A DNA stretch of 64,000 nucleotides, from the NCBI GenBank assembly GCA_942492885.1, contig OW818651.1:2479513-2543512 (forward strand), written 5' to 3'. The notes beneath the pieces are model-generated. The model was not told where the DNA came from, made no database searches, and saw only the letters and a program-made list of their open reading frames with translations. How positions within the stretch are numbered: position 1 is the stretch's first letter; each line of letters begins with the position of its first letter. The DNA is from an uncultured Eubacteriales bacterium. Lineage in GTDB: Bacteria > Bacillota > Clostridia > Christensenellales > CAG-138. Position numbers and translations under genes: made by a program. Shown here in pieces: positions 4,890 to 47,843 of this stretch.

Positions 4890-5389
4890 GATACACCTAT
4901 TGTTTTCTGCTTATTCTATCAAACACTGCCGCGCTCAAACCTACTGAGCGCGTACCCATTGCTGTAGGCTCTTGATCAATATCTTACGCACTTGTTGTTC
5001 AATCGTCAACACTGCATATGAAACACGGAGCCTAAAACTGTCATACCGGAGGAAAGCAAATAGGATCAAAATCAATGCGTATCCGCACAGCAGTCGTAAC
5101 ATTGCGGATAACTAGTTAGCTGTTGAAACGAATGCCGTCAGTCAGAAGGATCAAACAAGATTGAGTGTTGATGACGCGACGAAGTATAGCTCTTGCGGGA
5201 AGTTTTCGGTGCGATTTTCCAATCAATATGGTGATGAAAATATGTACATTTTCGCAAAAAACACTCGCGGCTGGGCGAAAGATAGAGTATGATAGTCTGG
5301 ATATTGTGAAACCAGCGCGCCGTATGAAAGACAGATCAAATAGATTGACACGGCAGGAGCGGCGCAGCAACAGAGGAGGAACGATTTTT

Positions 5390-7879: not shown

Positions 7880-8010
7880 TAGTTCAGGTTACATTGTGAC
7901 CTGGCCAGCGGGTGAAGCATCGCTTCTTAAAAGTCATTGTTTTCGGCCTTACTTTCGCGTTTTTTGTGGATTCACCCAGCGAAGGCCGGGGGAGATCAGA
8001 GGTCTACTGC

Positions 8011-8592
8011 ATGCGGCAATCGGGTGCATATATACCGGACGACGATCCGGCGGACAGCGGAGCATACGATTCCTATGCGCGCCCGCGCAGGCATTCCGGC
8101 ATCGGAAAAGTCCTGCTCGGCGTATGCGTCACGCTCCTGCTTGTTGCGGCACTTGCGCTGTTATACATCCGCCAATACACCGTGACCGGGGTTTCTATGG
8201 AGCCCACGCTGATGGCGGGAGACCGCGTATTCTACGTCGGTTTCTCAGGTGCAGACTACGGCGATCTGATCATATTCGACGCGGGCGATGTCTACGGACT
8301 TGTGGTCAAGCGCGTTGCGGGGCTGCCGGGGGATCGCATCGAGATCACGGCGGACGGACACCTGCTGCGAAACGGCGAAGAGATCGAAGAAGACTATCTG
8401 ATTTTGGATTCTCTCGGCAACAGCGGCTTGGCACAGATCACCGTCGAAAGCGGGAAGCTGTTCGTCCTTGGTGACAACCGCGCGGCGTCGATCGACAGCA
8501 GAGATGTGCGCGTGGGTCAGATCAACAGCACGTCTGTCCGCGGCGTGGTCACGACGATGCTGCGGGACACGGTGCCGTCGAATAAAAAATAA
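8011..8592 (+). CDS. lepB: Signal peptidase I
   Basis: One TM helix, then GVSMEPTL (catalytic Ser), VKRVAGLPGD (Lys), GDNRAASIDSR. ATG 8011 with SD preferred over 7912. Confidence 0.9.
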   Translation: MRQSGAYIPDDDPADSGAYDSYARPRRHSGIGKVLLGVCVTLLLVAALALLYIRQYTVTGVSMEPTLMAGDRVFYVGFSGADYGDLIIFDAGDVYGLVVKRVAGLPGDRIEITADGHLLRNGEEIEEDYLILDSLGNSGLAQITVESGKLFVLGDNRAASIDSRDVRVGQINSTSVRGVVTTMLRDTVPSNKK

Positions 8593-8698: not shown

Positions 8699-10687
8699 AT
8701 GCAGCACAAGCGAAAAATCGTAACATGCGTCATATCCCTCCTGCTCGTCACGCTGATGCTGGCGTTGTTTGGCTGCGCGGGTGAGACGGTGCATGCGCTT
8801 GACTATTCTTTGGAGAGCGAGCTGTATACCGAGCAACCGGAGGCGACAGCCCAAACCGAACCCACGCCGGAAGAACCCGCCGTGAGTGATACACCGGAGG
8901 TTTTGCCGACGCCGTCGCCCGAGAGTTTATCGACCGCTTCACCCACCCCTACCGCACCGGATACGACACCGGAGGTCACGGACGGCACGGGAGATGCTAC
9001 CGAAACACCGCTGCCTTCCCAAACGCCGGAATTGCACCGGCTGACGGTTTTTGCGCAGGATGCTTCCGCTGCGGCGCTGGCCGGCGCGCGCGTGACGCTG
9101 TTTCAGGACGGGGCGCTGCTCTTCTCCGGCATGACCGGAAGCGACGGAAACGTCGCCTGGATGCTTCCGCAAGGCCACACCTATCGAGTCAAAGCCGCAT
9201 TGTCCGACTATCAGACCAGCGACGGGGACGGCGGCACCTATGATATGACGCAGGACGTTCATGTGAAGATCACGCTCGTGCAGAGCAATCCGGACGGAGA
9301 CGATACCGCAACGCCTACCCCGCTCCCCGTGCCGGATGGCGCGCCGGGCAACGTGGTCATCACCGCTGGCGATGTTACGATTCAGCCGAAACAGGCGTTT
9401 GCCCTGCTGGACGGCGTAAGCGCACAGACGGAGTTTGACCAGCCCGTGGCGGTTTGGGTCGTGGACAACGGCGGATTCCGCGCGGACACACCGGGGGTCT
9501 ATACCGTGACCTATGGTTCGTTTGAGGAAGGCGCACTTGTCACCGTGACGCGCGCGGTTACAGTAGCGGGCGAGACATCCGAAATACCGGCGGAAGAGCA
9601 GGTAAGGGCACCCTCCGGCAGCAGTCAGGAACGCTATGAGATTTTGTTGGCGTATCGCGCCGAGGTCGGGGATCAGCTCGCGCAGCGCATCGCCGCGCTG
9701 AACGCCGCGTATGAGCAAAAGGTGGAGGAGGCGCAGGCCGAGAACGCCGAGGCGCGCATCCTTGCCGCAGCAGAGGCGGAGAACGACACAGACGACATGA
9801 CCAACGCGGCAGAGGATGTTCAGCCGACGCTGAATGTTCGGGTGACCAACTGGCCGGATGTGCTGGCGACGTTTCTCGCGCAGAATGTAGCGTATGAATC
9901 GAATCCGCTGAACATGGAGCACCTGCTCAACATTTCACTGGATGAACTCGACAGCGTGTTTTGGGATATGAACCAGATCGAAGTATTCCGCATGGACGGA
10001 ACGGCAAACGTTCTGCTCAGCGCGAAATCATATGAAGACATGGCGGACGTGTACGACATGAACACCGGACGCAGAACCTTCCTTTATGAGCTCATGCAGC
10101 CGGAGTTTCAGCGCACGTTTGCCTCGATGACGGGAAACATCGCGTTTACCGAGGCGAGCAAAGAGAGCATCGACGCGTTGCTCTCCGCCCTGCCGGAGGA
10201 CACCAATGTCGAGCGGCAGCAGGTAGTGGAGACAGCCCTTTCGCTCACCGGCAAGATCTCCTATGTCTTTGGCGGAAAATACAACCGCCTGGGCTGGAAC
10301 AACGAGTGGGGCAACGCAAACGAGGCGCAGACGGGCGAGGTGGCGAGAATCTCACGCTCCGAGGGTCTGGATTGCAGCGGATTTGTCAGCTGGGTGTTCA
10401 TCAACGCAATCGGCGATCCGTCGGCGCTGAGCGTCATCGGCAACGGATCTAGCAACCAGTGGGCGCACTCCACCGCAATCGGCTGGGACGAAGGGCGTCC
10501 CGGCGATCTGGCGTTCTATTGCGCGCCGGGCGAGCGACAATACAACCACATCGGCATCATCGTCTCGATCGATGAGGACGGCAGCTATCTGGTGGCGCAC
10601 TGCTCCTCCCTGCAGGATGGCGTGGTCGTAACAGACGGCTGGAGCACAGGGTTTCGCTATCTGCGCAGGCCCGCAATCTTCCGGTAA
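8699..10687 (+). CDS. Modular lipoprotein with C-terminal NlpC/P60 peptidoglycan hydrolase domain
   Basis: Signal with LFGC lipobox; P/T/E-rich linker; beta-sandwich/Ig-like segments (PGVYTVTY); GLDCSGFVSW...HIGI...AHC catalytic motifs. Confidence 0.8.
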   Translation: MQHKRKIVTCVISLLLVTLMLALFGCAGETVHALDYSLESELYTEQPEATAQTEPTPEEPAVSDTPEVLPTPSPESLSTASPTPTAPDTTPEVTDGTGDATETPLPSQTPELHRLTVFAQDASAAALAGARVTLFQDGALLFSGMTGSDGNVAWMLPQGHTYRVKAALSDYQTSDGDGGTYDMTQDVHVKITLVQSNPDGDDTATPTPLPVPDGAPGNVVITAGDVTIQPKQAFALLDGVSAQTEFDQPVAVWVVDNGGFRADTPGVYTVTYGSFEEGALVTVTRAVTVAGETSEIPAEEQVRAPSGSSQERYEILLAYRAEVGDQLAQRIAALNAAYEQKVEEAQAENAEARILAAAEAENDTDDMTNAAEDVQPTLNVRVTNWPDVLATFLAQNVAYESNPLNMEHLLNISLDELDSVFWDMNQIEVFRMDGTANVLLSAKSYEDMADVYDMNTGRRTFLYELMQPEFQRTFASMTGNIAFTEASKESIDALLSALPEDTNVERQQVVETALSLTGKISYVFGGKYNRLGWNNEWGNANEAQTGEVARISRSEGLDCSGFVSWVFINAIGDPSALSVIGNGSSNQWAHSTAIGWDEGRPGDLAFYCAPGERQYNHIGIIVSIDEDGSYLVAHCSSLQDGVVVTDGWSTGFRYLRRPAIFR

Positions 10688-11571: not shown

Positions 11572-11662
11572 CCCACGCAAATGGCACAACCCGCGAAAGC
11601 GGGCGTCGCAAAGCTATAGGGCCTACCGGCATTCACTTGCCCACGGCAGCCAGTTTCCGAAT
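11572..11662 (+). ncRNA. c-di-GMP-I (GEMM) riboswitch aptamer
   Basis: CACGCAAAUGGCACAA-CCCGC-GAAA-GCGGG-CGUCGCAAAGCUAUAGGGCCUA...ACGGCAGCCAGUUUCCGA. P2 has a GNRA loop, the GCAAAG junction is present, and the G20/A47/C92 equivalents fall at 11583/11610/11657. Confidence 0.88.
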
Positions 11663-11722
11663 GAAGAACTCACGTTTCACACGATCAGCCGGGAACGGTT
11701 TGGTTGTGTTTCAAAAAAACGG

Positions 11723-11767
11723 TGGCGGTTCAGATTCATTGGGAATTTGAGCCGTTGTTCTTTTTTT
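11723..11767 (+). terminator. Putative riboswitch expression-platform terminator
   Basis: GU-rich stem tggcggttca/tgagccgttg followed by T7, between the aptamer and the peptidase gene. Confidence 0.45.
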
Positions 11768-11837: not shown

Positions 11838-12464
11838 ATGCAGGCTTTGCTGCCGGTGATCTACGGCGCTGCACTGGGCGCCATTCTGGCAGTCCCCGCG
11901 CGGCTCCTCTACGGGTTCTTACTCAAACAGCGCGGCATCGCCGGGCAGATGGAGCGCAAGCACTTCTGGATGTTGCTTGCAGGTATGGCGCTCATCGGCG
12001 GAGTGATCGGCTGGCGGGCGGGGGTTACCTTCCGCGGGCTATACCTCATGCTGCTGCTGCTGGTCGCGGGGCTGGCGTTTTTGATCGATGCGAAGCACCG
12101 CATCATCCCAAACGAGCTTGTGCTCGCAATTCTGGTTCTAGCCGCGGTGTTCGGGCTGACCGGGGTGATACGATTCCAGATTTGGAATTCCCTGCTAGGG
12201 CTCGCCGTATGCTTCGTCATTTTCTTTCTTCCGGGCCTGTTTGGAAAGCAGGTAGGCGCGGGGGATGTCAAGCTGGCAGCCGCGATGGGGTTTGCGCTTG
12301 GGCTAAAGGGCAGTCTGTACGCGATTGCGTGCATGGGCGCTCTGGTGCTGCTCTATGTTTTTCTAAACTGGCGCATACCGTTTGCGCAGCGGCTCAAGAC
12401 GATGATCCCGATGGGGCCGTTTCTGGCGCTTGCGCTGGTCGCAATGTCGATCATATTGGTCTAG
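11838..12464 (+). CDS. Type IV prepilin peptidase (A24 family, TadV/CpaA-like)
   Basis: Polytopic membrane protein with IDAKHRIIPN and GAGDVKL aspartate motifs; upstream of flp genes. Confidence 0.88.
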   Translation: MQALLPVIYGAALGAILAVPARLLYGFLLKQRGIAGQMERKHFWMLLAGMALIGGVIGWRAGVTFRGLYLMLLLLVAGLAFLIDAKHRIIPNELVLAILVLAAVFGLTGVIRFQIWNSLLGLAVCFVIFFLPGLFGKQVGAGDVKLAAAMGFALGLKGSLYAIACMGALVLLYVFLNWRIPFAQRLKTMIPMGPFLALALVAMSIILV

Positions 12465-12692: not shown

Positions 12693-12845
12693 ATGAAAAA
12701 GTTTTTCATGAATGAAGAGGGCCAGGGTATGGTCGAATACGGCCTGATCATCGCGCTCGTCGCGGTTGTCGTCATTGGTGCCATTGCGGCGCTGGGCGGT
12801 GGCGTTGGCAACACCTTTAACTCGATCGTCGGTAATCTGGATTAA
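12693..12845 (+). CDS. flp: Flp/Fap type IVb pilin 1 (50 aa; absent from ORF track)
   Basis: Hand translation MKKFFMNEEGQG-MVEYGLIIALVAVVVIGAIAALGGGVGNTFNSIVGNLD; G|xxEY Flp motif; SD AAAGGAGG. Confidence 0.93.
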   Translation: MKKFFMNEEGQGMVEYGLIIALVAVVVIGAIAALGGGVGNTFNSIVGNLD

Positions 12846-12885: not shown

Positions 12886-13038
12886 ATGGATCGTTTCGTT
12901 TTGAATGAAGAGGGTCAGGGCATGGTTGAATACGCACTGATCATTCTGCTTGTTGCGCTTGTCGTGATCGGCGGACTAACGCTGATGGGCACAAACGTTG
13001 CTGCGTTTTTCAACGATTTTAGCAATAATTTCTTGTGA
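12886..13038 (+). CDS. flp: Flp/Fap type IVb pilin 2 (50 aa; absent from ORF track)
   Basis: Hand translation MDRFVLNEEGQG-MVEYALIILLVALVVIGGLTLMGTNVAAFFNDFSNNFL. Confidence 0.92.
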   Translation: MDRFVLNEEGQGMVEYALIILLVALVVIGGLTLMGTNVAAFFNDFSNNFL

Positions 13039-13422: not shown

Positions 13423-13854
13423 ATGGAGCAATCGATTGTTGGAAAACCATCTAAGAAGATACGTCGGGAGAACGGTCAGGCGGCCGTAGAGCTGGCTCTT
13501 GTGCTTCCGCTCTTATTATTGTTGATCTTCGGTATGCTGGAGATGGGCTGGCTCGCCTCCACACGGCAGGTGATGGATACCATGACGCGCGAGGCAACCC
13601 GCGCGGGAACAGTAGCCGCGACCACCACCGCCGCAACGACCGCCGTCAATGCCGCCGTCACGAAGATCAAACCGGCTTATTTGACAAATACGGTTACGGT
13701 CACCGTCACGTTCTCCACGCCTTCCAACTTTAAGGCCGGAGACATCACGGTCACCACGGCCTACGATCTGCCGACCTTGACACCGATTACCGCATTTCTC
13801 GCCCCCGGGGGCAGCTTTCACATCGTATCGACGAGTACGATGAAGGTTGGCTAG
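13423..13854 (+). CDS. tadE: TadE-like pseudopilin
   Basis: RENGQAAVELALVLPLLLLLIFGMLE class III signal and TREATRAG motif. Confidence 0.88.
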   Translation: MEQSIVGKPSKKIRRENGQAAVELALVLPLLLLLIFGMLEMGWLASTRQVMDTMTREATRAGTVAATTTAATTAVNAAVTKIKPAYLTNTVTVTVTFSTPSNFKAGDITVTTAYDLPTLTPITAFLAPGGSFHIVSTSTMKVG

Positions 13855-14034: not shown

Positions 14035-14811
14035 ATGAAAAAAATTGTCTTGTTCGCCCTGATCGCCGCGCTTTGCGCGGGCGCGTTGCTCTATTTTTAT
14101 CTGGGCAATCTCGAAGCGCAAAAAGAGGTGAAGGTGGAGTACGACAACGTGGTTGTTGCCTTGACCAACATCCCCGCTTATACGCCGATCACGGCTGACA
14201 TGGTCACATTCAAGCAGGTGCCGCTGGGATATGCGCATCCGCTTGCCGCGCACACGCTCGAAGAAGTCGTAAACTACGTGACCGAGAGCGACATCATCGA
14301 GGGCGAGCAGCTATTGCCCGCCAAGCTCAAGCAATATGGTGAGGCCGACAGCGGACTATCGTATGTCGTGCCGGAAGGCTTGCGCGCGGTGACCGTCGGG
14401 GTCGATGAAGTCACCGGCGTCGCTGGATTTTTGCAGCGCGGGGATTATGTAGACGTCATCTCCTACACCACCACGACCTATCTGCCTGCCGAGGCACCAG
14501 TTGTCCCGGAAGGCGAAGAACCCACGGCAGCCCAGCTGCCGCAAACGCTGAGCACCACGCTGGTTGCCGCGCAGAATGTACGCGTGGCAGCGGTCGGCAT
14601 GTCTCTCTCGGGCAACGCGACGACGGCGGAAGGCGAGCCGGTCACCGGATACGGCAGCGTGACGCTGCTATTGACGCCGGAGGACACCATGCGTGTGGTG
14701 CAGGGTGCAAGAAGTGGCGCGATCATCCTGATTCTGCGTGCGACGGGCGACCATACGCCTAACACGGAAGAACCGGTCATCAACGATATGCTATTGGTCC
14801 AGGCACAGTAA
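14035..14811 (+). CDS. cpaB: Flp pilus assembly protein CpaB/RcpC (SAF domain)
   Basis: VVVALTNIPAYTPIT (SAF), GLRAVTVGVDEVTGVAGFLQRGDYVDVI, SVTLLLTPED. Confidence 0.92.
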   Translation: MKKIVLFALIAALCAGALLYFYLGNLEAQKEVKVEYDNVVVALTNIPAYTPITADMVTFKQVPLGYAHPLAAHTLEEVVNYVTESDIIEGEQLLPAKLKQYGEADSGLSYVVPEGLRAVTVGVDEVTGVAGFLQRGDYVDVISYTTTTYLPAEAPVVPEGEEPTAAQLPQTLSTTLVAAQNVRVAAVGMSLSGNATTAEGEPVTGYGSVTLLLTPEDTMRVVQGARSGAIILILRATGDHTPNTEEPVINDMLLVQAQ

Positions 14812-14819
14812 GGGGAAAC

Positions 14820-15947
14820 ATGAACAGCATTCGCATCATGTTGGCAGCCACATCTGCCGACGACAGAAAACTAATCTCCGGCTTGTTGACGGACGAAGCC
14901 TTGCGCGTCGTCAGCTCCTTCCGTCCGGATGGCGACGGGTTGAAGAAGGCATCTTCGCAGCCTGCGGATGTGCTTTTGATCGGAACCCGCGCGCTGCCGA
15001 CGCAGGAGCTGGATTTTGCGGAGCGGATGTTTACGACGCGAAGCGACATCACGATTCTCCTGCTTGCTCCCGCGCTGGACAGCCGCACGCTCGCCCGCGC
15101 GATGGAATGCGGTATTGCCCGCGTGATCGATATCGACAGCAGTGAACACGACATCTGCACCCATATCATGACCGCGGCAAACCGTGACCAGAACCGCCGC
15201 ACCTGTACACAAAAAATCGCAAGCTATGACTCCAAGATCATCGCGTGCTATTCGCCCAAGGGCGGCGTCGGCAAAACCACGCTCGCGGTCAATTTGGCAT
15301 ATGCGCTTGCAACCCTGAATAAAAAAATTGCGCTGATCGATCTGAGCTTGCAGTTCGGAGAGGTTGGCGTTTTTTTGGATATTCCAAAGGGCGACACCAT
15401 TGCGGACATGGTGGAGGAGCACTCCTTTGAGCTTTCCACCATCAAGAGCTATCTCATTCGCCATCAAAGCGGTATGCAGGTCATGCTCTCGAGCAGTTCG
15501 CCGGAGTATGCCGAGCTGATCCAGCCGGTACATGTCAACTCTATTCTTTCTACGCTCAGGACAGAGTTTGACTATGTCGTCGTCGACATGGGCGTCGCCT
15601 TCGGCGATTGCGCCATTGCGGCGATGGAGACCGCGGATACGATTCTACTGGTGGTCAACGAGGATATCGCCTCTTTGCACGACGCAAAGCGCAGCATCAA
15701 GGTGCTCGAGGCGCTCAACCAGCAGGACAAGCTGAAGATCGTCGTCAACAAGGACGGCATCTCGACCATCACAGTCAAAAACGTTGCAAACCTTTTAGAG
15801 GCAACGCCCGTGCTTGTGATTCCGTTTGATCTCAAAGCGGCCATGCTCGCGATCAACCGCGGAATTCCGATGCTCAGCTGCGCGCCGAATTCCAAGGCGA
15901 GCAAGGTGATTCGTGAATATGCGCACTCCTTGATTCGGAGGGCATAA
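14820..15947 (+). CDS. cpaE: TadZ/CpaE-like receiver-ParA/MinD ATPase
   Basis: N-terminal receiver-like fold, deviant Walker A SPKGGVGKTT, LIDLSLQFG; position in the tad operon. Confidence 0.88.
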   Translation: MNSIRIMLAATSADDRKLISGLLTDEALRVVSSFRPDGDGLKKASSQPADVLLIGTRALPTQELDFAERMFTTRSDITILLLAPALDSRTLARAMECGIARVIDIDSSEHDICTHIMTAANRDQNRRTCTQKIASYDSKIIACYSPKGGVGKTTLAVNLAYALATLNKKIALIDLSLQFGEVGVFLDIPKGDTIADMVEEHSFELSTIKSYLIRHQSGMQVMLSSSSPEYAELIQPVHVNSILSTLRTEFDYVVVDMGVAFGDCAIAAMETADTILLVVNEDIASLHDAKRSIKVLEALNQQDKLKIVVNKDGISTITVKNVANLLEATPVLVIPFDLKAAMLAINRGIPMLSCAPNSKASKVIREYAHSLIRRA

Positions 15948-15949
15948 GC

Positions 15950-17260
15950 ATGGGATTGCTGGAGCGCCTGGATAAAAAAACACCCGCCTTGCAGACCGGT
16001 GCGGGAACGCAGACGGAGGCGGACGAAACCGCGGCTCTGCGCGACCGGGTTCATTATCAGGTTGTTGAGACGCTCAATAAGCGCGATGAAAAGCACAGCG
16101 GCGGCACGAACGAAGTCGATACGCGCTCCATCATCGAATCCGCGCTGGAGCAGCACGCCTCCAGCATGGCGCGGCCGGAACGCAACCGCATCGCGGTGGA
16201 GATCTACGATTCCATCCGCGGCTTAGGCCCGCTGGAGAAACTGCTTTCCGACGAAACGGTCACGGAAATCATGGTCAACGGAGCCAAGCAGGTCTTCGTA
16301 GAGCGCAAGGGCAAGCTGATGCAAACCGACGTCACGTTTTATGACAACGAGCAACTGCTCAACGTCATCGACCGCATCGTCTCTCCCCTTGGGCGGCATA
16401 TCGACGAAGCAAACCCGATGGTCGACGCGCGCCTGACCGACGGTTCGCGCGTCAACGCGGTCATCGCGCCGCTTTCGCTCAAAGGGCCGCTGCTCACGAT
16501 TCGAAAGTTTTCCAAGACGCCGCTTTCGATTGAAGACCTGATCAACTACGGCAGCCTTAATGTCAAGATGGCGGCGTTTCTCGAATGCTGCGTCAAGGGC
16601 AGAATGAACATGGTCGTTTCCGGCGGTACCGGCAGCGGAAAAACAACGCTGTTGAATGTACTCTCCGCCTTTATTCCATATGACGAGCGCATCGTAACCA
16701 TCGAGGATGCGGCGGAAATCCAGCTGCAACAGGCGCATGTGCTCACGCTCGAAGCGCGCCCGTCAAACCTCGAAGGTACGGGTGAAATCACCATCCGCGA
16801 TCTGGTGCGAAACGCGCTGCGTATGCGACCCGATCGCATCATCGTCGGCGAGGTACGTGGCGGTGAAGCGCTGGACATGCTCCAGGCGATGAACACCGGC
16901 CACGATGGCTCCCTCACCACAGGCCACGCAAACTCCACGCGGGACATGCTCGCGCGTTTGGAAACCATGGTGCTCATGGCGGGCATGAACCTGCCTTTGC
17001 CTGCCATCCGGCAGCAGATTTCATCTGCAATCGATATCATCGTGCAGCAATCCCGTATGCGCGACGGTAGCCGCAAAATCATCGGCATCAGCGAAGTGAC
17101 CGGCATGGAAGGCGACGTGATCGTCACACAGGAGATTTTCGCCTATGACTATGGCGACGGGCGTTCACCCGGACGCTTCCGCGCAACCGGCATCAAGCCG
17201 CGCTGCAGCGACAAGCTCGTCGCGGCGGGCGCAGGGCTCAAGGACGAATGGTTCCACTAA
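15950..17260 (+). CDS. cpaF: Tad pilus assembly ATPase TadA/CpaF
   Basis: EIMVNG, GGTGSGKTT Walker A, ALRMRPDRIIVGEVRG, AMNTGHDGS. Confidence 0.96.
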   Translation: MGLLERLDKKTPALQTGAGTQTEADETAALRDRVHYQVVETLNKRDEKHSGGTNEVDTRSIIESALEQHASSMARPERNRIAVEIYDSIRGLGPLEKLLSDETVTEIMVNGAKQVFVERKGKLMQTDVTFYDNEQLLNVIDRIVSPLGRHIDEANPMVDARLTDGSRVNAVIAPLSLKGPLLTIRKFSKTPLSIEDLINYGSLNVKMAAFLECCVKGRMNMVVSGGTGSGKTTLLNVLSAFIPYDERIVTIEDAAEIQLQQAHVLTLEARPSNLEGTGEITIRDLVRNALRMRPDRIIVGEVRGGEALDMLQAMNTGHDGSLTTGHANSTRDMLARLETMVLMAGMNLPLPAIRQQISSAIDIIVQQSRMRDGSRKIIGISEVTGMEGDVIVTQEIFAYDYGDGRSPGRFRATGIKPRCSDKLVAAGAGLKDEWFH

Positions 17261-17364
17261 ACCCGTTTGAGATGATAAACGAAACGGGTGAGTGGACGAA
17301 ACCCGGCCCGCGCGGCAAACGCGGTTAAACCAAAACAAGATTTTTCAGAGAGGAGATGAAGCAC

Positions 17365-18294
17365 ATGATTCGGACATTGGTCGCTGTGGCGTTTGTCATC
17401 GCGTGCTATTTCATCTTTTATCTGATCGCCATGGCGCGCACGAAGCAAAAGCGCAAGATGGACGAGCGTGTGCGTACGCTCTTTGAGCTCGGCGCAAATG
17501 AAAACGCAAACAAGCGCTCCGGCAAAGGTATTCAACGCAAGAATCCGCTCCGGCTGGAGCAGATTGCCGACGAGTTGTATGTTGCGGGCGTCGCGCTGCG
17601 CGCAGAGGAGTTCATCACCATCTGGGTTTTCACAGGAGTCGTACTTCCGGCAATCGTGCTGTTTCTCGGTGCGCCGGTCACGGTTTGTATTGGTCTCGTC
17701 ATCGTCGGCGCCGCGGCGCCGATCAGCTGGGTGACGATCAAGCGAAACAAACGGCTTGCGCTGTTAGGCACGCAGCTTTCCGATGCGCTAGCGATCATCT
17801 GCAACGCGCTGCGCGTGGGGCAGTCGTTTCAGTCTGCCATGAAGAACGTTGCAGAAGAGATGGAAGAACCCATCTCGCGCGAGTTTATGCGCGTCTATCG
17901 CGAAACACAATACGGTATGCCGCTGGAGACAAGCCTTGGCCGTCTCATCACACGGACAAAAAATCCGGATTTGGAGCTGATGTCCTCTGCCGTCATCATT
18001 CAGCGGCAGATCGGCGGCAACCTTTCCGTGATTTTGCAGAATATTTCAGATACGATCAATCAGCGCATCCGCCTGCGCGGGGAAATTCGAACCATGACCT
18101 CCGCCGGACGCATGAGCGGCTATATCATCGGCGCACTGCCGGGGTTTATTATCCTGCTGCTGATGTTCATCAACCCGGGCTATATCAATATGTTTTTTAC
18201 AACCCCGAACGGGCGCATCATGCTGCTGATCAGCGCGATTCTGGAGATCATCGGTTTTTCGATCGTCAGCAAGATCGTCAACATCAAACTTTAG
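17365..18294 (+). CDS. tadB: Tad inner-membrane platform protein TadB
   Basis: T2SS-F-type: QLSDALAIICNALRVGQSF, QRQIGGNL, EIRTMTSAGR. Start 17365 fits SD spacing better than 17356. Confidence 0.9.
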   Translation: MIRTLVAVAFVIACYFIFYLIAMARTKQKRKMDERVRTLFELGANENANKRSGKGIQRKNPLRLEQIADELYVAGVALRAEEFITIWVFTGVVLPAIVLFLGAPVTVCIGLVIVGAAAPISWVTIKRNKRLALLGTQLSDALAIICNALRVGQSFQSAMKNVAEEMEEPISREFMRVYRETQYGMPLETSLGRLITRTKNPDLELMSSAVIIQRQIGGNLSVILQNISDTINQRIRLRGEIRTMTSAGRMSGYIIGALPGFIILLLMFINPGYINMFFTTPNGRIMLLISAILEIIGFSIVSKIVNIKL

Positions 18295-18309: not shown

Positions 18310-19236
18310 ATGAGGCTTGTTGTTCTGTTTTTTACCATCGCGGTGTTTCTCTCTTTGCTTGCATTGCTGTACGGGGCTGGAATCAAAAGCGACCAGATGC
18401 GCAAGCGCTTCACTCAGGTTGTGGAGACGGAGCGCGCCTATAGCGACGAGGAACTCCGAAAATCCTTTTCCGAGCGCGTGCTCAAACCCTTCATCAAGCG
18501 GGTCTCCGAAGGGATACGCCGCTCAGCGGGCAACAGCAAGCCGGTGGGACAAAGCAAAGCGTCCATCAAGCTCGACAAACAGATCAAGGCATCCGGCATG
18601 GCGCTCTCGTTGCAGGAGTTCTCGTTTATCAAAAGCATGCTGCTGCTCGTGTTTATCCTGCTTGGCATCGCAATGTTTGTCCTGCTGCCGCTGAGCTTCC
18701 TGTTCCGGCTCGTGATTCTGATGGTTATGCTGAATATCCCGCTTTACGGAACCAGCTATTTTCTCACCTCCCGCGTGAAAGGCCGGAAAAACGCCATCCT
18801 GCGCGAGCTGCCGGAGACGATGGACGTTCTGGTAGTGAGCGTGGAGGCAGGGCTGGGACTGGATGCTGCCATTGTGCGGCAATATGCCAAGAATAAGAAC
18901 GTCGTGCTCACGGAGCTCAACAACGCAATCCGCGAGGTGCAGATGGGCGTTCCGCGCAGAACCGCACTCAAGGAGATGGCGGATCGCTGCGACGTCAAGG
19001 AGATGACCGCGTTCGTCACCGCGCTGTTGCAGGCGGATCAGCTGGGCGTTCCGATCAAGAATGTGTTGGAAGTACAGGCAGAACGGCTCAGGGTTGAGCG
19101 CAAGCAGAGAATTCAGGCTGTGGCGGCAAAAGCGCCGATCAAGATCATGCTGCCGACAGTGCTGTTTATCTTTCCCGTGATCTTCATCATCCTGCTTGGT
19201 CCCGCGGCTGTGAGCATGATGGCCACGCTGCGCTAA
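18310..19236 (+). CDS. tadC: Tad inner-membrane platform protein TadC
   Basis: ELPETMDVLVVSVEAGLGLDAAI, QADQLGVPI, AAKAPIKIMLP. Confidence 0.92.
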   Translation: MRLVVLFFTIAVFLSLLALLYGAGIKSDQMRKRFTQVVETERAYSDEELRKSFSERVLKPFIKRVSEGIRRSAGNSKPVGQSKASIKLDKQIKASGMALSLQEFSFIKSMLLLVFILLGIAMFVLLPLSFLFRLVILMVMLNIPLYGTSYFLTSRVKGRKNAILRELPETMDVLVVSVEAGLGLDAAIVRQYAKNKNVVLTELNNAIREVQMGVPRRTALKEMADRCDVKEMTAFVTALLQADQLGVPIKNVLEVQAERLRVERKQRIQAVAAKAPIKIMLPTVLFIFPVIFIILLGPAAVSMMATLR

Positions 19237-19320: not shown

Positions 19321-19662
19321 ATGAAGAGTGTTACAATCGCAAAAAACGGCGAAACCATCGCGCAGGTTTGGCACGCAACCGGATATTTTGCCAGACTGCG
19401 CGGACTGTTGGGGCGATCACTGCAGGCGGACGGCGGCATGCTGCTCACTCCCTGTAACGCCATTCACACCATCGGCATGGGCTATGCGATCGACGCGCTG
19501 TATCTGGACCGGCAGGGGCGCGTGCTGAGAATTGATGAATCACTCAAACCGGGCAGGGTACTGCCGCATCAGCGCGGCGCGAAACATGTTCTCGAGTTGC
19601 CGGACGGCTGCGCAAAGCGGCGCAACATTTCGGCGGGGGACATATTGGAGGTAATCCGATGA
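19321..19662 (+). CDS. DUF192 family protein
   Basis: FARLRGLLGR...GMLLTPCNAIHTIGM...IDALYLD...VLELP. Confidence 0.85.
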   Translation: MKSVTIAKNGETIAQVWHATGYFARLRGLLGRSLQADGGMLLTPCNAIHTIGMGYAIDALYLDRQGRVLRIDESLKPGRVLPHQRGAKHVLELPDGCAKRRNISAGDILEVIR

Positions 19663-20594
19663 ACGAGCGAATCGAGCGCAACGAAGAGGGAATCGATTCC
19701 CTGCGCAGCCGCATGGACGCGGACGCACGGTTTCGCCGCTCTTTATCCGGCTATGACCCGCAGGATGTGCGCGCATATGTGGAGAACGTAAAGCGAATTT
19801 TCGCGCAGCAGACAAAAGCCGCAAAACTCGAGCAGGATCAGTTGCTCGCCCAGCTGGATTCCGCTAAGAGCGAAATTCAGGCGCGCAACTACGGCATCAA
19901 GAAGTTTAAAGAGTTGCTGGTCGAGCGCGAAGTGCAGCTCAACACCGCGAACACGCGCATCAACGCGCTCCTGCAGACCGTCAAGTCGCATGGCGCGGAG
20001 CGCGAGGAGCTCGAGCGCCTGCGTCAGGATGTGGCGAGCAGCGGTAATTTGGAGCGGATTCAACACCTGGAGAAGGAAACACAGCAGCTGCGTTCCGCGG
20101 TTGCGCAGGCGTCCAACCTGGTCAACACCTGGAAGGCGGAGCGCGAACGGCTGATGGAAGAGAACGATCGCCTGCGCGAAGAGGTCTACTATATGCGCGC
20201 GGTGGCGATGAAGCCCGAGCAAAACGCAGAACCGAACCGCCCGTATCCTGTGCAAAACACGGAACCGAACCGCCCGTATCCCGTGCAAAACGCATACCCC
20301 GGCGCATACGAGCAGAACACGCGCCCGCGCGCGGACGTGATCACCGCGGAGAACCGCTTTGTGCAGCCTGCCGTGCAACAGCCCGTGCAGCAGCCCGTGG
20401 TAAATTCGCAGCAAAAAGAATTCTCGCAGGTGGCCGATAAACTCGCGACCATGTTCGCCGAGGCGTATCAGCTCATCAGCCAGTTTAAGTCCAATCTGGA
20501 TGCGCAGCCGGAGCAGCAGCGCGCAGGGCAGCCTGCGATGCAGATCTTGCGCCCGGACACCGTGAATGCGGATGTGTTCTATCCCAGAAGATAG
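19659..20594 (+). CDS. Coiled-coil protein with DivIVA/GpsB-like N-terminal motif and P/Q-rich tail
   Basis: FRRSLSGYDPQDVRAYVE resembles the DivIVA F-x3-FRGYD-x2-EV motif; long heptad region; ATGA overlap with DUF192. Confidence 0.6.
   Translation: MNERIERNEEGIDSLRSRMDADARFRRSLSGYDPQDVRAYVENVKRIFAQQTKAAKLEQDQLLAQLDSAKSEIQARNYGIKKFKELLVEREVQLNTANTRINALLQTVKSHGAEREELERLRQDVASSGNLERIQHLEKETQQLRSAVAQASNLVNTWKAERERLMEENDRLREEVYYMRAVAMKPEQNAEPNRPYPVQNTEPNRPYPVQNAYPGAYEQNTRPRADVITAENRFVQPAVQQPVQQPVVNSQQKEFSQVADKLATMFAEAYQLISQFKSNLDAQPEQQRAGQPAMQILRPDTVNADVFYPRR
20220..20294 (+). repeat. 33-bp in-frame tandem repeat (about 2.3 copies; QN[A/T]EPNRPYPV)
   Basis: caaaacgcagaaccgaaccgcccgtatcctgtg / caaaacacggaaccgaaccgcccgtatcccgtg / caaaacgca. 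Confidence 0.92.
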
Positions 20595-20618
20595 TGCCTC
20601 AAGGCAAATGAACACAAG

Positions 20619-20664
20619 AAAAGCGCAGAAGCTACGGCAGAGGGCCGCGCGTTTGCGCTTTTTT
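20619..20664. terminator. Intrinsic terminator ending the tad operon
   Basis: aaaagcgca...tgcgctttttt between convergent genes. Confidence 0.65.
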
Positions 20665-20725
20665 GCAGGACATCCGGTAACGATTGCACCAATATAGAGA
20701 GAAACGATTCAGGCAAGAGATGCCG

Positions 20726-21163
20726 TTAGTTGGTTTTCTCGTTGCGGTAGAGGATCACCTTGCGGGCAAAGAAATTCCAGAACAGCACGACGGCTGAGGC
20801 GACCACCTTGGAGATCATGTAGTGAAACTGCACGATTTCCGTGAAAAAATACAAGAGCGCTTCGGTTAAGCCTAGTCCGACCAGCCCGATGAGTGCATAG
20901 CCCGCAAACTCCAGCACGCGCCCGACCCGCGCGGTCTCGGCGCGAAACACCAGCGCCCGCGAGAGCAGGAAGTTAAACACGAGCCCCGCGACAAACCCAA
21001 AGCACGCGGCAAGCAGATAGTGCATCCCTGCGCGCGCAAATAACCACAAAACGCCCGCGTCGACGAGGAACGAACACCCGCCGACGAACACATAGCGGAA
21101 GAACTGGATGAGCGGCCGCGTGGTCGGCTCGGTAAACAGCGTCTTGAACAAGGATTTTTCCAT
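20726..21163 (-). CDS. GtrA-family lipid-linked sugar flippase
   Basis: QFFRYVFVGGCSFLVD...NFLLSRALVF...SKVVASAVVLFWNFFARK; four TM helices. Confidence 0.9.
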   Translation of the reverse strand: MEKSLFKTLFTEPTTRPLIQFFRYVFVGGCSFLVDAGVLWLFARAGMHYLLAACFGFVAGLVFNFLLSRALVFRAETARVGRVLEFAGYALIGLVGLGLTEALLYFFTEIVQFHYMISKVVASAVVLFWNFFARKVILYRNEKTN

Positions 21164-43796: not shown

Positions 43797-46700
43797 ATGC
43801 CACTGGATCAAAACATCAAACGCGTGATGGTCATCGGCTCAGGCCCTATCGTGATCGGTCAAGCTGCGGAGTTTGACTACGCGGGCACGCAAGCCTGCCG
43901 CGCGCTGCGCGAGGAGGGGTTGGAGGTCATCCTCGTCAACTCCAACCCCGCGACGATCATGACCGACCGCGCGATGGCGGATCATATCTACATCGAGCCG
44001 CTGACGCTGATCACATTAAAGCGCATCATTGAAAAAGAGAAGCCGGACAGCCTTCTCTCCACGCTTGGCGGGCAGACGGGGCTGACGCTCTCGATGCAGC
44101 TGGCAAAAGACGGCTTTTTGCAGGAGCACGGCGTGAAATTGCTCGGCGCAAACCCGGTGACCATCGCCAAAGCCGAAGATCGCCAACTCTTCAAGGACGC
44201 GATGATCGAGATCGATCAACCCGTGATCCCCTCGCTGGTGGTGACGGAGCTGGAGGATGCCCTTCGCTTTGCGGAAGAGATCGGCTATCCGGTCATCGTC
44301 CGCCCGGCGTTCACGCTCGGCGGCAGCGGCGGCGGCATTGCGCAAACACAGGACGAGTTGCACGAGATCGCGACAAACGGCATCCGCATGTCGCCGATTC
44401 ATCAGATTCTGGTCGAAAAATGCATCTCCGGCTGGAAAGAGATCGAGTTTGAGGGCATGCGGGACAAAAACGGCAACGTCATTACGATTTGCAGCATGGA
44501 AAATTTCGATCCCGTCGGCGTGCACACGGGCGACAGCATCGTAATCGCGCCCGCAGTGACGCTCTCTGACCGCGAATATCAAATGCTGCGTACCGCGACA
44601 AGAAACATCATCGATACCCTTGGCATCGAGGGCGGCTGCAACTGCCAGTTTGCACTGCACCCGACCAGCTTTGACTACGCGGTGATCGAGGTCAACCCGC
44701 GTGTGAGCCGCTCCTCTGCGCTGGCCTCCAAAGCGACGGGTTACCCCATCGCGAAGGTCGCGACCAAGATCGCGATTGGCTACACGCTCGACGAGATTCA
44801 AAACGCGGTCACCGGCAACACCTCCGCCTGCTTTGAGCCCGCGTTGGACTATGTCGCGGTCAAGCTGCCCAAGTGGCCGTTTGACAAGTTTGTCTACGGC
44901 AAGCGCACGCTCGGCACGCAGATGAAGGCGACGGGTGAGGTCATGGCGATTGGGCCTACGTTTGAGCAGGCGATCATGAAGGCGGTCCGCGGCGCGGAGA
45001 TTTCACAGGACAGCCTGAACATGAAAAAACTTGCGGGCATCCCGACAGAGCAGATTCGCGAGCGCCTCCACAACTGCGACGACGAGCGGATGTTTGTGGT
45101 GTTTGAAGCGCTCAAGCGCGGGATTTCGATGGAAGAGATTCACCAGATCACGATGATCGACATCTGGTTCCTCGCGAAGCTCAAGCATCTTGCGGAATAT
45201 GAGATGAGCATCGCGGCAGAAGGTCTTTCCGACGAAGCATATCTCGAAGGCAAGAAGCTCGGCTATCCCGACCAGGTACTCTCGCGCATCAGCGGGCGGC
45301 CGGTCAAGGAACACCTCTACGCAGGATACCGCATGGTCGATACCTGCGCGGCGGAGTTTGAGGCGCAAACACCGTACTTCTACGCGGACTACGATTGCGT
45401 GGAGAACGAGGCGCAGACCTTCCTGCAACGGCATGACACGGGCAAGCGTCGCGTGATCGTGTTCGGTTCGGGGCCGATCCGCATCGGTCAGGGGATCGAG
45501 TTTGACTATGCCTCCGTCCACTGCGTCTGGGCACTCAAGCAGGCGGGGTTTGAGGTGGTCATCGTCAACAACAACCCCGAAACGGTATCCACGGACTTCG
45601 ACACGGCGGATCGCCTCTACTTCGAGCCGCTGCTGCCGGAGGACGTGATGAACGTCATCCATACCGAGCAGCCCTACGGCGTGGTGGTGGCGTTCGGCGG
45701 GCAGACGGCAATCAAGCTTACGCGCTATCTTTCCGAGCAGGGCGTGCGCATCCTCGGCACGCCTGCGGACAGCATCGACGCGGCGGAGGATCGGGAACGG
45801 TTTGACGCGCTGCTGGAGCAGCTCTCCATCAAGCGCCCGCACGGCAAGACCGTCAAGACCGAGGAGCAGGCGCTCACAGCCGCGCAGTCGCTGGGCTATC
45901 CCGTGCTGATTCGACCCAGCTACGTGCTCGGCGGGCAGAATATGATCATCGCGTTTTCGGATGACGACGTGCGCGAATACATGGGCATCATCCTCAGAAA
46001 GGGCATCGACAACCCGATCTTGATCGATCAATATCTGATGGGTACCGAGATCGAGGTGGACGCCATCTGCGACGGAACCGACATTCTGATCCCAGGCATC
46101 ATGGAGCACATCGAGCGCGCGGGTGTGCACTCCGGCGACTCCATCGCGGTCTATCCCGCGTGGAATCTCAACGGCCCGCTGATCGAGCGCGTGGTGGATC
46201 ACTCCCGCAGGCTCGCGCTGGCGCTCAGCACGCGGGGGCTCATCAATATCCAATATGTAATTTATGAGAACGAAATCTACGTCATCGAGGTCAACCCGCG
46301 CTCGTCGCGCACGGTGCCGTATATCAGCAAGGTCACGGGTGTGCCGATGGTAGACCTTGCCACGCGCGCCATGCTGGGCGATAAGCTCAGCGACATGGGC
46401 TTTGGCACGGGGCTATACAAAACGCCGCCTTATGTCGCGGTCAAGGTGCCCGTGTTCTCGTTTGAAAAGCTGGCGGACGTCGATATCCTGCTCGACCCGG
46501 AGATGAAATCGACAGGCGAAGTGCTCGGCATCGGCAAAACGCGGGAGGAGGCGCTCTACAAAGGCCTCGTCGCCGCGGGCTATAACATGAAGCGGCGGGG
46601 GGGCTTGCTCGTCACCGTGCGGGATCAGGACAAGGCGGAGATGACCGACGCGGTGCGAAAGTTTGCGGATTTGGGCTTCACGCTCTACGCCACAAAAGGC

Positions 46701-47843
46701 ACGGCGGCGGTGCTCAGACTAGCGCAGATGAAGGTGATCGAAGTCGGCAAGCTGCACGAGACCGACGGGGAGAATATCCTGACCTTGATCGAGAGTGGCA
46801 AGATCGACTACATCCTCTCCACCTCGTCCAAAGGCAGATTGCCTTCGCGGGACAGCGTGAAGATTCGCAGAAAAGCCATCGAGCGCGCGGTGCCGTGCAT
46901 CACCTCGATCGACACCGCAAACGCGCTGGTAGATAGCCTTTTGAGCCGCTACTCCGAGCACAGCACCGAGCTTGTGGACATCAACCACATGCGCACGCAG
47001 AAGATGCGGCTGCCGTTTACCAAGATGAACGGAACCAGCAACGACTATATCTACTTCAACTGCATGGAGCAAACGATCGACGCGCCGGAGTCGCTGAGCG
47101 TCTATCTGTCCGAAGCGCACGCGGGCATCGGCGGGGACGGCATCATCCTCATCGAGCCGTCAGAGATTGCTGATGCGAAGATGCGGATCTTCAACCGCGA
47201 CGGCAGCGAGGGAAAGATGTGCGGCACCGGCGTCCGCTGCGTGGGTAAATATCTCTACGACAACGACATGACCGACCAAACCGAGCTCACAATCGAGACG
47301 AAAAGCGGCATCAAGCACCTCAAACTCTATGTGCGCGGCGGCAAGGTGAAGTCCGTCACCGTGGACATGGGCAAGGCGGAGCTGAATCCGCAGAATGTCC
47401 CTGTACTGTTGGATGGGGACAAGATCGTTTCGCGTCCGGTCGTCATCGACGAGAAACCATACAACATCACCTGCGTTTCGATGGGGAATCCGCACTGCGT
47501 GGTGTTCGTGGAATATCCCGACCTGCTGGAGATTGAGAAGATCGGTCCCGCAATCGAAACCGCACCGATCTTCCCCGATCGCGTGAATGTCGAGTTTGTG
47601 CAGGTGCTGGACGGGCACACGCTCAAGATGCGCGTTTGGGAGCGCGGCAGCGGGGAGACGCTTGCCTGCGGCACGGGCGCCTGCGCCGCGGTGGTCGCCG
47701 CCACCGAAAACAGCTTCTGTGCCAAAGGCGAGGACATCACCGTCCGCCTGCGCGGCGGCGACCTCTTGGTGCGCTACACCGACGAAACGGTGTTTGTGAC
47801 CGGCGACGCGAAGAAGAACTTTGAAGGTTTTGTGGAGCTTTAA
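43797..47843 (+). CDS. carB: Carbamoyl-phosphate synthase large subunit fused to a C-terminal diaminopimelate-epimerase (DapF-like) domain (about 47004-47843)
   Basis: GSGPIVIGQAAEFDY, two ATP-grasp halves and an MGS domain, followed with no stop by FTKMNGTSNDY...MCGTG...MGNPH...WERGSGETLACGTG. Confidence 0.93.
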   Translation: MPLDQNIKRVMVIGSGPIVIGQAAEFDYAGTQACRALREEGLEVILVNSNPATIMTDRAMADHIYIEPLTLITLKRIIEKEKPDSLLSTLGGQTGLTLSMQLAKDGFLQEHGVKLLGANPVTIAKAEDRQLFKDAMIEIDQPVIPSLVVTELEDALRFAEEIGYPVIVRPAFTLGGSGGGIAQTQDELHEIATNGIRMSPIHQILVEKCISGWKEIEFEGMRDKNGNVITICSMENFDPVGVHTGDSIVIAPAVTLSDREYQMLRTATRNIIDTLGIEGGCNCQFALHPTSFDYAVIEVNPRVSRSSALASKATGYPIAKVATKIAIGYTLDEIQNAVTGNTSACFEPALDYVAVKLPKWPFDKFVYGKRTLGTQMKATGEVMAIGPTFEQAIMKAVRGAEISQDSLNMKKLAGIPTEQIRERLHNCDDERMFVVFEALKRGISMEEIHQITMIDIWFLAKLKHLAEYEMSIAAEGLSDEAYLEGKKLGYPDQVLSRISGRPVKEHLYAGYRMVDTCAAEFEAQTPYFYADYDCVENEAQTFLQRHDTGKRRVIVFGSGPIRIGQGIEFDYASVHCVWALKQAGFEVVIVNNNPETVSTDFDTADRLYFEPLLPEDVMNVIHTEQPYGVVVAFGGQTAIKLTRYLSEQGVRILGTPADSIDAAEDRERFDALLEQLSIKRPHGKTVKTEEQALTAAQSLGYPVLIRPSYVLGGQNMIIAFSDDDVREYMGIILRKGIDNPILIDQYLMGTEIEVDAICDGTDILIPGIMEHIERAGVHSGDSIAVYPAWNLNGPLIERVVDHSRRLALALSTRGLINIQYVIYENEIYVIEVNPRSSRTVPYISKVTGVPMVDLATRAMLGDKLSDMGFGTGLYKTPPYVAVKVPVFSFEKLADVDILLDPEMKSTGEVLGIGKTREEALYKGLVAAGYNMKRRGGLLVTVRDQDKAEMTDAVRKFADLGFTLYATKGTAAVLRLAQMKVIEVGKLHETDGENILTLIESGKIDYILSTSSKGRLPSRDSVKIRRKAIERAVPCITSIDTANALVDSLLSRYSEHSTELVDINHMRTQKMRLPFTKMNGTSNDYIYFNCMEQTIDAPESLSVYLSEAHAGIGGDGIILIEPSEIADAKMRIFNRDGSEGKMCGTGVRCVGKYLYDNDMTDQTELTIETKSGIKHLKLYVRGGKVKSVTVDMGKAELNPQNVPVLLDGDKIVSRPVVIDEKPYNITCVSMGNPHCVVFVEYPDLLEIEKIGPAIETAPIFPDRVNVEFVQVLDGHTLKMRVWERGSGETLACGTGACAAVVAATENSFCAKGEDITVRLRGGDLLVRYTDETVFVTGDAKKNFEGFVEL

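Follow-up and report, generated by a model that had tools for sequence, protein, structure and literature searches.

The last gene of a Tad operon in an uncultured Eubacteriales bacterium raises the question of what role a coiled-coil protein with a DivIVA-like N-terminus could have in a pilus locus. The stretch analysed, referred to here as the window, comprises 64,000 nucleotides of contig OW818651.1. It encodes on the forward strand a 311-residue open reading frame (ORF) at 19659-20594, which we have named X311 and which is the final gene of an 11-gene Tad operon, directly following a gene for a protein of the DUF192 family. X311 is very probably a DivIVA-motif protein that is functionally tied to the Tad system. 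A more specific reading considers X311 as a divergent DivIVA-domain protein and a dedicated accessory of a monoderm Tad/type IVc pilus operon, made together with the cytoplasmic DUF192 protein behind a cyclic di-GMP (c-di-GMP)-I riboswitch; in our estimate it falls just short of an even chance. Based on sequence comparisons, the DivIVA-domain kinship is real at the level of a motif, and X311 belongs to a divergent subfamily and is not an orthologue of DivIVA.

The initial annotation had recognised a DivIVA/GpsB motif at the N-terminus of X311. This assignment is borne out across the family, while X311 alone remains below the curated thresholds; the comparison with DivIVA yields similarity of sequence at the N-terminal motif and no match at the level of fold in Foldseek. 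Position-consistent, sub-threshold matches to the Pfam DivIVA family (PF05103) have been obtained for 19 of the 22 close members and 8 of the 11 distant ones. TIGR03544 is matched at the same N-terminal position by 12 of 13 family members, and sub-threshold family matches are also found to the GpsB model NF010725 and to NF045995. Curated cut-offs are exceeded in several cases. P0125, which matches the family profile with an E-value of 1.2e-68, scores 31.1 bits on PF05103 (cut-off 28), on TIGR03544 (cut-off 22) P0127 reaches 23.9 bits and P0130 22.6 bits, and the protein following DUF192 in locus L081 passes both (30.5 and 23.3 bits respectively). Since the N-terminal match recurs across the family at the same place and several members pass the cut-offs, it exceeds what chance would give. 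A few homologues of X311 carry the label 'cell division septum initiation protein DivIVA' from the Joint Genome Institute (JGI).

Profile comparisons point to the same region. When a 73-residue N-terminal profile is compared with the PDB, the N-domains of DivIVA and GpsB make up 8 of the top 12 sequences, the DivIVA/GpsB chains being led by 4ug1, a GpsB structure that is also the best PDB match of X311 alone (E 0.13). On the GpsB model NF010725, X311 is matched over the N-domain only (E 0.0029; 18 bits against a cut-off of 91), which places it outside the GpsB family. A sequence of B. subtilis DivIVA was found to be 99-100% identical to database entries named DivIVA, and a Bacillus DivIVA profile was built from these matches for hhalign comparison with the X311 family profiles. 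The first family profile (A4) aligned with a probability of 66%, and a broader profile to which the remote lineages had been added (A7) aligned to DivIVA residues 12-37 with a probability of 90.6% (P 1.3e-6). In the hidden Markov model (HMM) alignment to PDB entry 2wuj, F25 of X311 corresponds to F13 of DivIVA, L29 to F17 and S30 to R18. As judged from these alignments, the likeness of X311 to DivIVA is confined to the N-terminal motif. No second DivIVA-like ORF has been found in the 64-kb window.

The full-length family profile has only generic coiled-coil matches in the PDB, and matches to YabA, SMC, Rad50, Med2 and TSC22 were rejected as reflecting coiled-coil composition. The top PDB match of the N-terminal profile, a lysozyme with CW_7 repeats (5i8l), was judged to be due to chance, as a 15-residue GYDPxxV string is matched three times with an E-value of about 14 each. 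Residues 31-45 of X311 (19749-19793; GYDPQDV..V..V) resemble the CW_7 repeat of 5i8l, AGYDPQAVQDKVNEI, each repeat match being insignificant.

The domain layout of X311 has been derived from an alignment of 22 homologues and from an AlphaFold2 (AF2) model, and corresponds to a cytoplasmic protein that lacks a transmembrane segment. The conserved N-terminal module spans approximately residues 12-47, IDSLRSRMDADARFRRSLSGYDPQDVRAYVENVKRI; its DivIVA/GpsB-like part, supported by invariant columns and by hhalign, covers residues 15-47 (19701-19799, forward strand; LRxR..RFxR..GYxPxxV..). The invariant columns are L15, R16, R24, F25, G31, Y32 and V37, among which F25, G31, Y32 and V37 are unchanged in all the lineages compared, with the motif lying directly 5' of the coiled coil. 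AF2 monomer models show a helix-turn-helix break at G31-Y32-D33. A long helical coiled-coil region follows at residues 34-184 (19758-20210, forward strand), identified from AF2 and from generic coiled-coil family matches. It is modelled as helices 34-110, 112-127 and 130-184, with a predicted local distance difference test score (pLDDT) mostly above 90.

The initial annotation had described a coiled coil followed by a disordered P/Q tail. The coiled coil is upheld, and the supposed tail is a linker, since conserved elements follow it that had been overlooked. The P/Q/N-rich disordered linker (residues 186-247; 20214-20399, forward strand) has a pLDDT below 50 and is partly made up of tandem repeats at 20214-20291 and 20371-20399, one of 33 bp in 2.4 copies that encodes EPNRPYPVQN and another of 12 bp in 2.4 copies that encodes PVQQ. 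This repeat structure fits the linker length, which differs among the homologues. Beyond the linker lies a conserved C-terminal amphipathic helix (residues 248-281; 20400-20501, forward strand) with a pLDDT of 79-89 in the AF2 model, a hydrophobic moment of 0.52 and the invariant residues F255, D260, L262, A263, F266, A267 and A269. Close to the C-terminus is a M-Q-I-L-R-P motif (residues 294-299; 20538-20555, forward strand) of invariant or near-invariant columns, which belongs to an invariant Q-P-x-M-Q-I-L-R-P.

The X311 family is narrow. Clustering at 90% identity gives 167 clusters, and at 50% identity only 34 are present in a set of 1.84 billion representatives. Members have been identified in 22 GTDB species genomes, all of them metagenome-assembled genomes labelled as Christensenella, Christensenellaceae or unclassified Clostridia. 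The order TadC-DUF192-X is found in all 22, with a downstream neighbour that differs. The same position after DUF192 is occupied in about eight more distant lineages (P0125, P0143, P0149, P0150/P0155/P0157, L053/55, L061-65 and L081) with unrelated flanks and a GC content of 31-60%. These distant relatives, which include proteins of 221 residues in the P0150, P0155 and P0157 group, resemble X311 little outside the N-terminal 60 residues. The placement in tad operons is thus conserved independently of the surrounding synteny in 22 species and about eight lineages. Lack of DivIVA similarity and lack of linkage to tad in relatives had both been named beforehand as possible refutations; the similarity is present at the N-terminal motif, and the linkage has held in every relative with a readable context. 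In the window the coupling to DUF192 is close. The two ORFs share an ATGA overlap of four nucleotides at 19659-19662, as initially annotated, with the ATG of X311 at 19659-19661 and the TGA of DUF192 at 19660-19662, and a strong Shine-Dalgarno sequence, GGAGG, lies at 19647-19651, 7 nucleotides 5' of the ATG.

An independent approach used Tad-linked DUF192 sequences as queries in a metagenome search, which yielded 80 loci (L035-L114) with 2384 ORFs, DUF192 being located at about 5001-5340 in the full-length loci. A Tad gene lies at most 120 nucleotides upstream of DUF192 in 44 of the 80 loci, a fraction biased upward by the choice of Tad-linked queries; in these DUF192 directly follows TadC, at a GC content of 31-72%. 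Thirty of the 44 loci have at least 700 nucleotides downstream, and 14 of these 30 have a match to the N-terminal HMM in the next ORF. All 15 matches to this HMM (E up to 10) among the 2384 ORFs are ORFs directly after DUF192. Three lineages of 31-38% GC (L053/55, L061-65 and L081) were added to the family by these loci. DUF192 is widespread as the terminal gene of Tad operons, and the DivIVA-like gene is an extra that a subset of lineages possess, and in these it is strictly Tad-linked. As the relatives include low-GC metagenome loci, the finding may reach beyond the environmental Christensenellaceae-like clade. The metagenome loci also suggest DUF192 as a little-noticed terminal Tad gene well beyond the lineages with the DivIVA-like gene.

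The Tad operon of the window is led by a c-di-GMP-I riboswitch at 11573-11661 on the forward strand (RF01051; 67.6 bits against a gathering score of 35), followed by a hairpin and then by tadV. A riboswitch of the same c-di-GMP-I class is also present 5' of the Tad operon in six loci of relatives from four lineages, namely L001, L012 and L022 of the core clade, L027 (P0150), L030 (P0125) and L032 (P0143 lineage). The position of the operon behind this riboswitch suggests that X311 is expressed within a pilus programme controlled by the second messenger, which argues against a housekeeping role in division and fits a pilus-specific one. The window also encodes, at 360-2804 on the forward strand, an 814-residue membrane sensor with 5TMR-LYT, PAS, GGDEF and HD-GYP-type (HD_5) domains. 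It is a protein of c-di-GMP turnover, and roughly 9 kb separate its gene from the pilus operon behind the riboswitch. A riboswitch for another messenger, cyclic di-AMP, has been identified in the P0150-lineage contig L027 (11906-12031), between the gene of a Cna_B surface protein downstream of the Tad operon and dapB.

X311 probably has the dedicated task of organising the pilus machine, because a DivIVA relative of this type always lies directly after the DUF192 gene; a role as polar anchor, placed by curvature sensing or by hetero-oligomerisation with DivIVA as initially suggested, would be one form of it that we infer. A number of observations weigh against this reading. X311 itself scores 13.1 bits on PF05103 and 15.7 bits on TIGR03544, below the respective cut-offs of 28 and 22. 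Only 26-39 columns align to DivIVA in hhalign, and the C-terminal (tetramerisation) domain of DivIVA has no counterpart in X311 by the same method, its place being taken by the different conserved helix and the MQILRP motif. Foldseek retrieved no match in the PDB for either the full-length or the 73-residue N-terminal AF2 model, a result that is uninformative rather than negative because long single helices make poor queries. AF2 models residues 3-30 as a single helix of low confidence and not as the DivIVA loop. The equivalent of Arg18 is Ser, Thr, His or Asn in the Christensenellaceae-like clade, so that membrane binding may have been lost. Finally, 16 of the 30 Tad-linked DUF192 loci (e.g. 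L042) are without an X311-type gene and end at DUF192 or continue with unrelated genes; the gene is thus not universal to Tad systems as a core component would be, and is not required for Tad function in general.

The loop residues deserve separate consideration. In B. subtilis DivIVA, Phe17 and Arg18 form an exposed pair of a hydrophobic and a basic residue that serves for membrane contact. The initial annotation had noted Leu-Ser in place of this pair, and the alignment to 2wuj agrees (L29, S30). The position equivalent to Phe17 is hydrophobic in every lineage, being occupied by L, F, M, I, V, W or Y, and GpsB likewise carries Leu or Val there. Arg18 is kept only in remote lineages, in the strings WRGY (L081), YRGY (L061) and VRGY (L053). 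In the X311 clade three arginines, Arg24, Arg26 and Arg27, lie just upstream of the loop pair. The loop of X311 may have retained the membrane contact or may have lost it, the sequence being compatible with both.

A mechanism in which X311 acts as a positional scaffold can be proposed tentatively, and we place it somewhat below an even chance. The DivIVA-like N-terminal cap would dimerise and would touch the membrane on its inner side, or else a membrane protein's tail in the cytoplasm, through Leu29 flanked by Arg24, Arg26 and Arg27. The coiled coil of about 150 residues could then build an extended oligomeric scaffold, from which the C-terminal amphipathic helix on its flexible P/Q linker would dock a component of the Tad machine. 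The likeliest partner would be the MinD/ParA-type ATPase TadZ/CpaE, possibly jointly with DUF192. TadZ/CpaE is favoured by analogy, because proteins of the DivIVA family are known to be scaffolds that recruit MinD/ParA-type ATPases, and it would be the most plausible client since it is itself a MinD/ParA/MipZ-type ATPase and is linked to the polarity hubs of diderm bacteria. As a result, the site of the Tad machines, at a pole or at the septum, and their number would be fixed. That DUF192 and X311 together form a c-di-GMP-switched module, which sets where and possibly how many Tad pili are made by tethering TadZ/CpaE to a membrane site, is possible and on the whole doubtful.

The same evidence has been weighed with respect to other explanations. 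Instead of anchoring the machine in place, X311 and DUF192 could be a pair that regulates its motor or platform. CpaF-driven extension and retraction or the supply of pilin might be gated in this way; the coiled coil would then be an adaptor that oligomerises, and the DivIVA-like motif no more than a dimerisation cap. The translational coupling and constant adjacency of the two genes, the wide attachment of DUF192 alone to TadC, the signal control of the operon by the riboswitch and the lack of conservation at Arg18 are compatible with such a pair, but family-model scans detected no regulatory domain of known type in X311 or DUF192, the conserved hydrophobic loop residue with its flanking arginines fits a contact with the membrane or a tail, and DivIVA-family proteins are generally known as scaffolds; we consider the regulatory role unlikely. 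An adaptor of the GpsB kind, whose N-domain would bind a cell-wall enzyme or other membrane protein by its cytoplasmic tail and couple local peptidoglycan remodelling to the pilus as it crosses the thick wall, is decidedly unlikely. GpsB is the best or a near-best match in several searches (NF010725, E 0.0029; 4ug1) and has Leu or Val where DivIVA has Phe17, and a gene for an NlpC/P60-CHAP lipoprotein, conserved in the core clade, lies just upstream of the operon. That protein, however, has a lipoprotein-type signal peptide and no cytoplasmic tail, its gene is missing beside the operon in the distant lineages, and X311 is three times longer than GpsB and lacks its C-terminal domain.

That X311 is a generic coiled-coil protein, with a short motif resembling DivIVA by chance and any Tad role unrelated to DivIVA behaviour, would account for its scores under every curated threshold and for the absence of Foldseek matches. 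The GYDPxxV string also matches the unrelated CW_7 repeat, and coiled-coil matches to SMC, YabA and Rad50 score equally or better. Against this, every lineage has the motif at this N-terminal place, immediately ahead of the coiled coil, curated cut-offs are exceeded in several of them and the hhalign probability climbs to 90.6% with the broader family profile, which makes a chance resemblance very unlikely. The JGI annotation of some homologues as a septum initiation protein could be taken to mean that X311 is the ordinary cell-division DivIVA of the organism, placed beside the Tad operon by an accident of synteny. This is scarcely credible, as the adjacency of X311 to DUF192 and TadC survives the change of both outer flanks over 31-60% GC, the start of X311 overlaps the stop of DUF192, the operon is under a c-di-GMP riboswitch and the neighbourhood is not of the dcw/ylm type. 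With 34 clusters at the 50% level in the 1.84 billion representatives, the family is moreover far too narrow for a housekeeping DivIVA.

The placing of X311 as a divergent DivIVA-domain protein is illustrated by comparison with known systems. As in B. subtilis DivIVA (PF05103; 2wuj, 2wuk), an N-terminal F-x-x-x-hydrophobic-x-G-Y-D-x-x-[DE]-V motif leads straight into a parallel-type coiled coil, and both proteins are cytoplasmic without a transmembrane segment. Unlike DivIVA, X311 begins with some 12 additional residues that include a conserved L-R-x-R, reaches about double the length, carries a P/Q linker, another C-terminal helix and the MQILRP motif, and is encoded in a pilus operon and not in a division cluster. 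With GpsB (NF010725; 4ug1, 4ug3, 6gp7) it shares a DivIVA-type N-domain and Leu/Val in place of Phe17. As a paralogue with the specialised task of an adaptor in a single machinery, GpsB provides a precedent for specialised DivIVA-domain proteins. It differs from X311 in its length of about 100 residues, its small trimerising C-terminal domain and its retained Arg, where X311 has a long coiled coil and another C-terminus.

A functional analogy can be drawn with the polar hubs of diderm bacteria, PodJ and RomR, scaffolds that recruit TadZ/CpaE and fix the site of Tad pili. In Caulobacter the hub PodJ recruits TadZ/CpaE. In Bdellovibrio RomR is the polar hub that recruits TadZ, as reported for RomR-TadZA (bioRxiv 10.64898/2026.07.08.737194). 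These hubs have no sequence kinship with X311, serve many clients and are encoded elsewhere, whereas X311 is encoded in the operon. The final two genes in Bulleidia extructa's tad operon have been described as coding for a 112-residue DUF192 protein and a coiled-coil protein with SMC-like similarity in HHpred (PMC12786226, December 2025). The same pair occurs in Helcococcus ovis, and the authors regard it as conserved beside tad genes with a role that is unknown; DivIVA is unmentioned in that report (PMC12786226). The pair of the window is similar in order and place to these terminal pairs, the likeness being drawn from the published description and not from sequence, and Bulleidia and Helcococcus belong to other orders than the host of X311.

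No literature linking DivIVA with Tad, Flp or TadZ has been found. The initial annotation was not aware of a DivIVA paralogue described in a Tad system; no report of the DivIVA link has come to light, whereas the DUF192/coiled-coil gene pair had already been reported in 2025 (PMC12786226). The gene arrangement was thus known before; new, as far as searched, are its riboswitch context, the recognition of the DivIVA domain and the wide extent of the linkage. The hubs described so far, PodJ and RomR, are from diderms and are encoded away from the operon; for the positioning of Tad pili in Gram-positive bacteria, a DivIVA-type protein within the operon offers a concrete, testable candidate. If the reading as a c-di-GMP-switched module with DUF192 is true, it would be the first scaffold of the DivIVA family devoted to a pilus machine, a monoderm counterpart of targeting by PodJ or RomR. 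Two recurrent and uncharacterised operon genes, DUF192 and the coiled-coil gene noted in Bulleidia and Helcococcus, would also be tied to membrane scaffolds of a known class.

A complete monoderm-type Tad operon lies upstream of X311, and gene spacing suggests that all of it, including X311, is co-transcribed. All genes are on the forward strand. The aptamer in the leader is followed by a terminator-like hairpin with a T-run at 11721-11759, detected by a consensus scan and with a presumed expression-platform role. The first gene, tadV, codes for a prepilin peptidase of the Peptidase_A24 family (11838-12464; PF01478, E 8.6e-15). Two Flp pilins of 50 residues each follow, identified from ORF and sequence. 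The first (12693-12845) has a G/MVEY processing motif, and its positional equivalents in relatives are assigned to Flp_Fap in Pfam; the second is at 12886-13038. Next are a tadE-like minor pilin (13423-13854; PF07811, E 5e-15) and cpaB/rcpC (14035-14811; RcpC E 3.5e-21, plus SAF). The gene tadZ/cpaE (14820-15947) encodes the MinD/ParA-type ATPase with a weak receiver-like N-terminus (AAA_31 1e-19, ParA 6.8e-15, MipZ 1.9e-7, Response_reg 0.0071). The secretion ATPase gene cpaF/tadA (15950-17260; T2SSE, E 2.4e-66) precedes the platform protein genes tadB (17356-18294; T2SSF, E 7.3e-18) and tadC (18310-19236; T2SSF, E 2e-14). DUF192 (19321-19662; PF02643, E 6.5e-16) is a 113-residue protein without a signal peptide, the profile of which matches PDB entries 3pjy and 3m7a. 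Downstream of X311 a terminator hairpin at 20617-20664, between an A-run and a T-run, confirms the operon terminator that had been placed there. A segment of 111 nucleotides (20590-20700) folds with -32.9 kcal/mol (z = -2.2), and the hairpin separates X311 from a convergent GtrA gene on the minus strand (20726-21163).

Just upstream of the Tad leader, a 662-residue lipoprotein with CarboxypepD_reg, Ig-like, NlpC/P60 and CHAP domains is encoded at 8699-10687 on the forward strand, preceded by a signal peptidase I gene (7912-8592, forward strand). The position of this hydrolase gene is kept in the core clade and not in the distant lineages. Elsewhere in the window a continuous ORF of 1348 residues (43797-47843, forward strand) combines the domains of the carbamoyl-phosphate synthase large chain with two C-terminal diaminopimelate epimerase domains, and represents either a CarB-DapF fusion or a missed stop.

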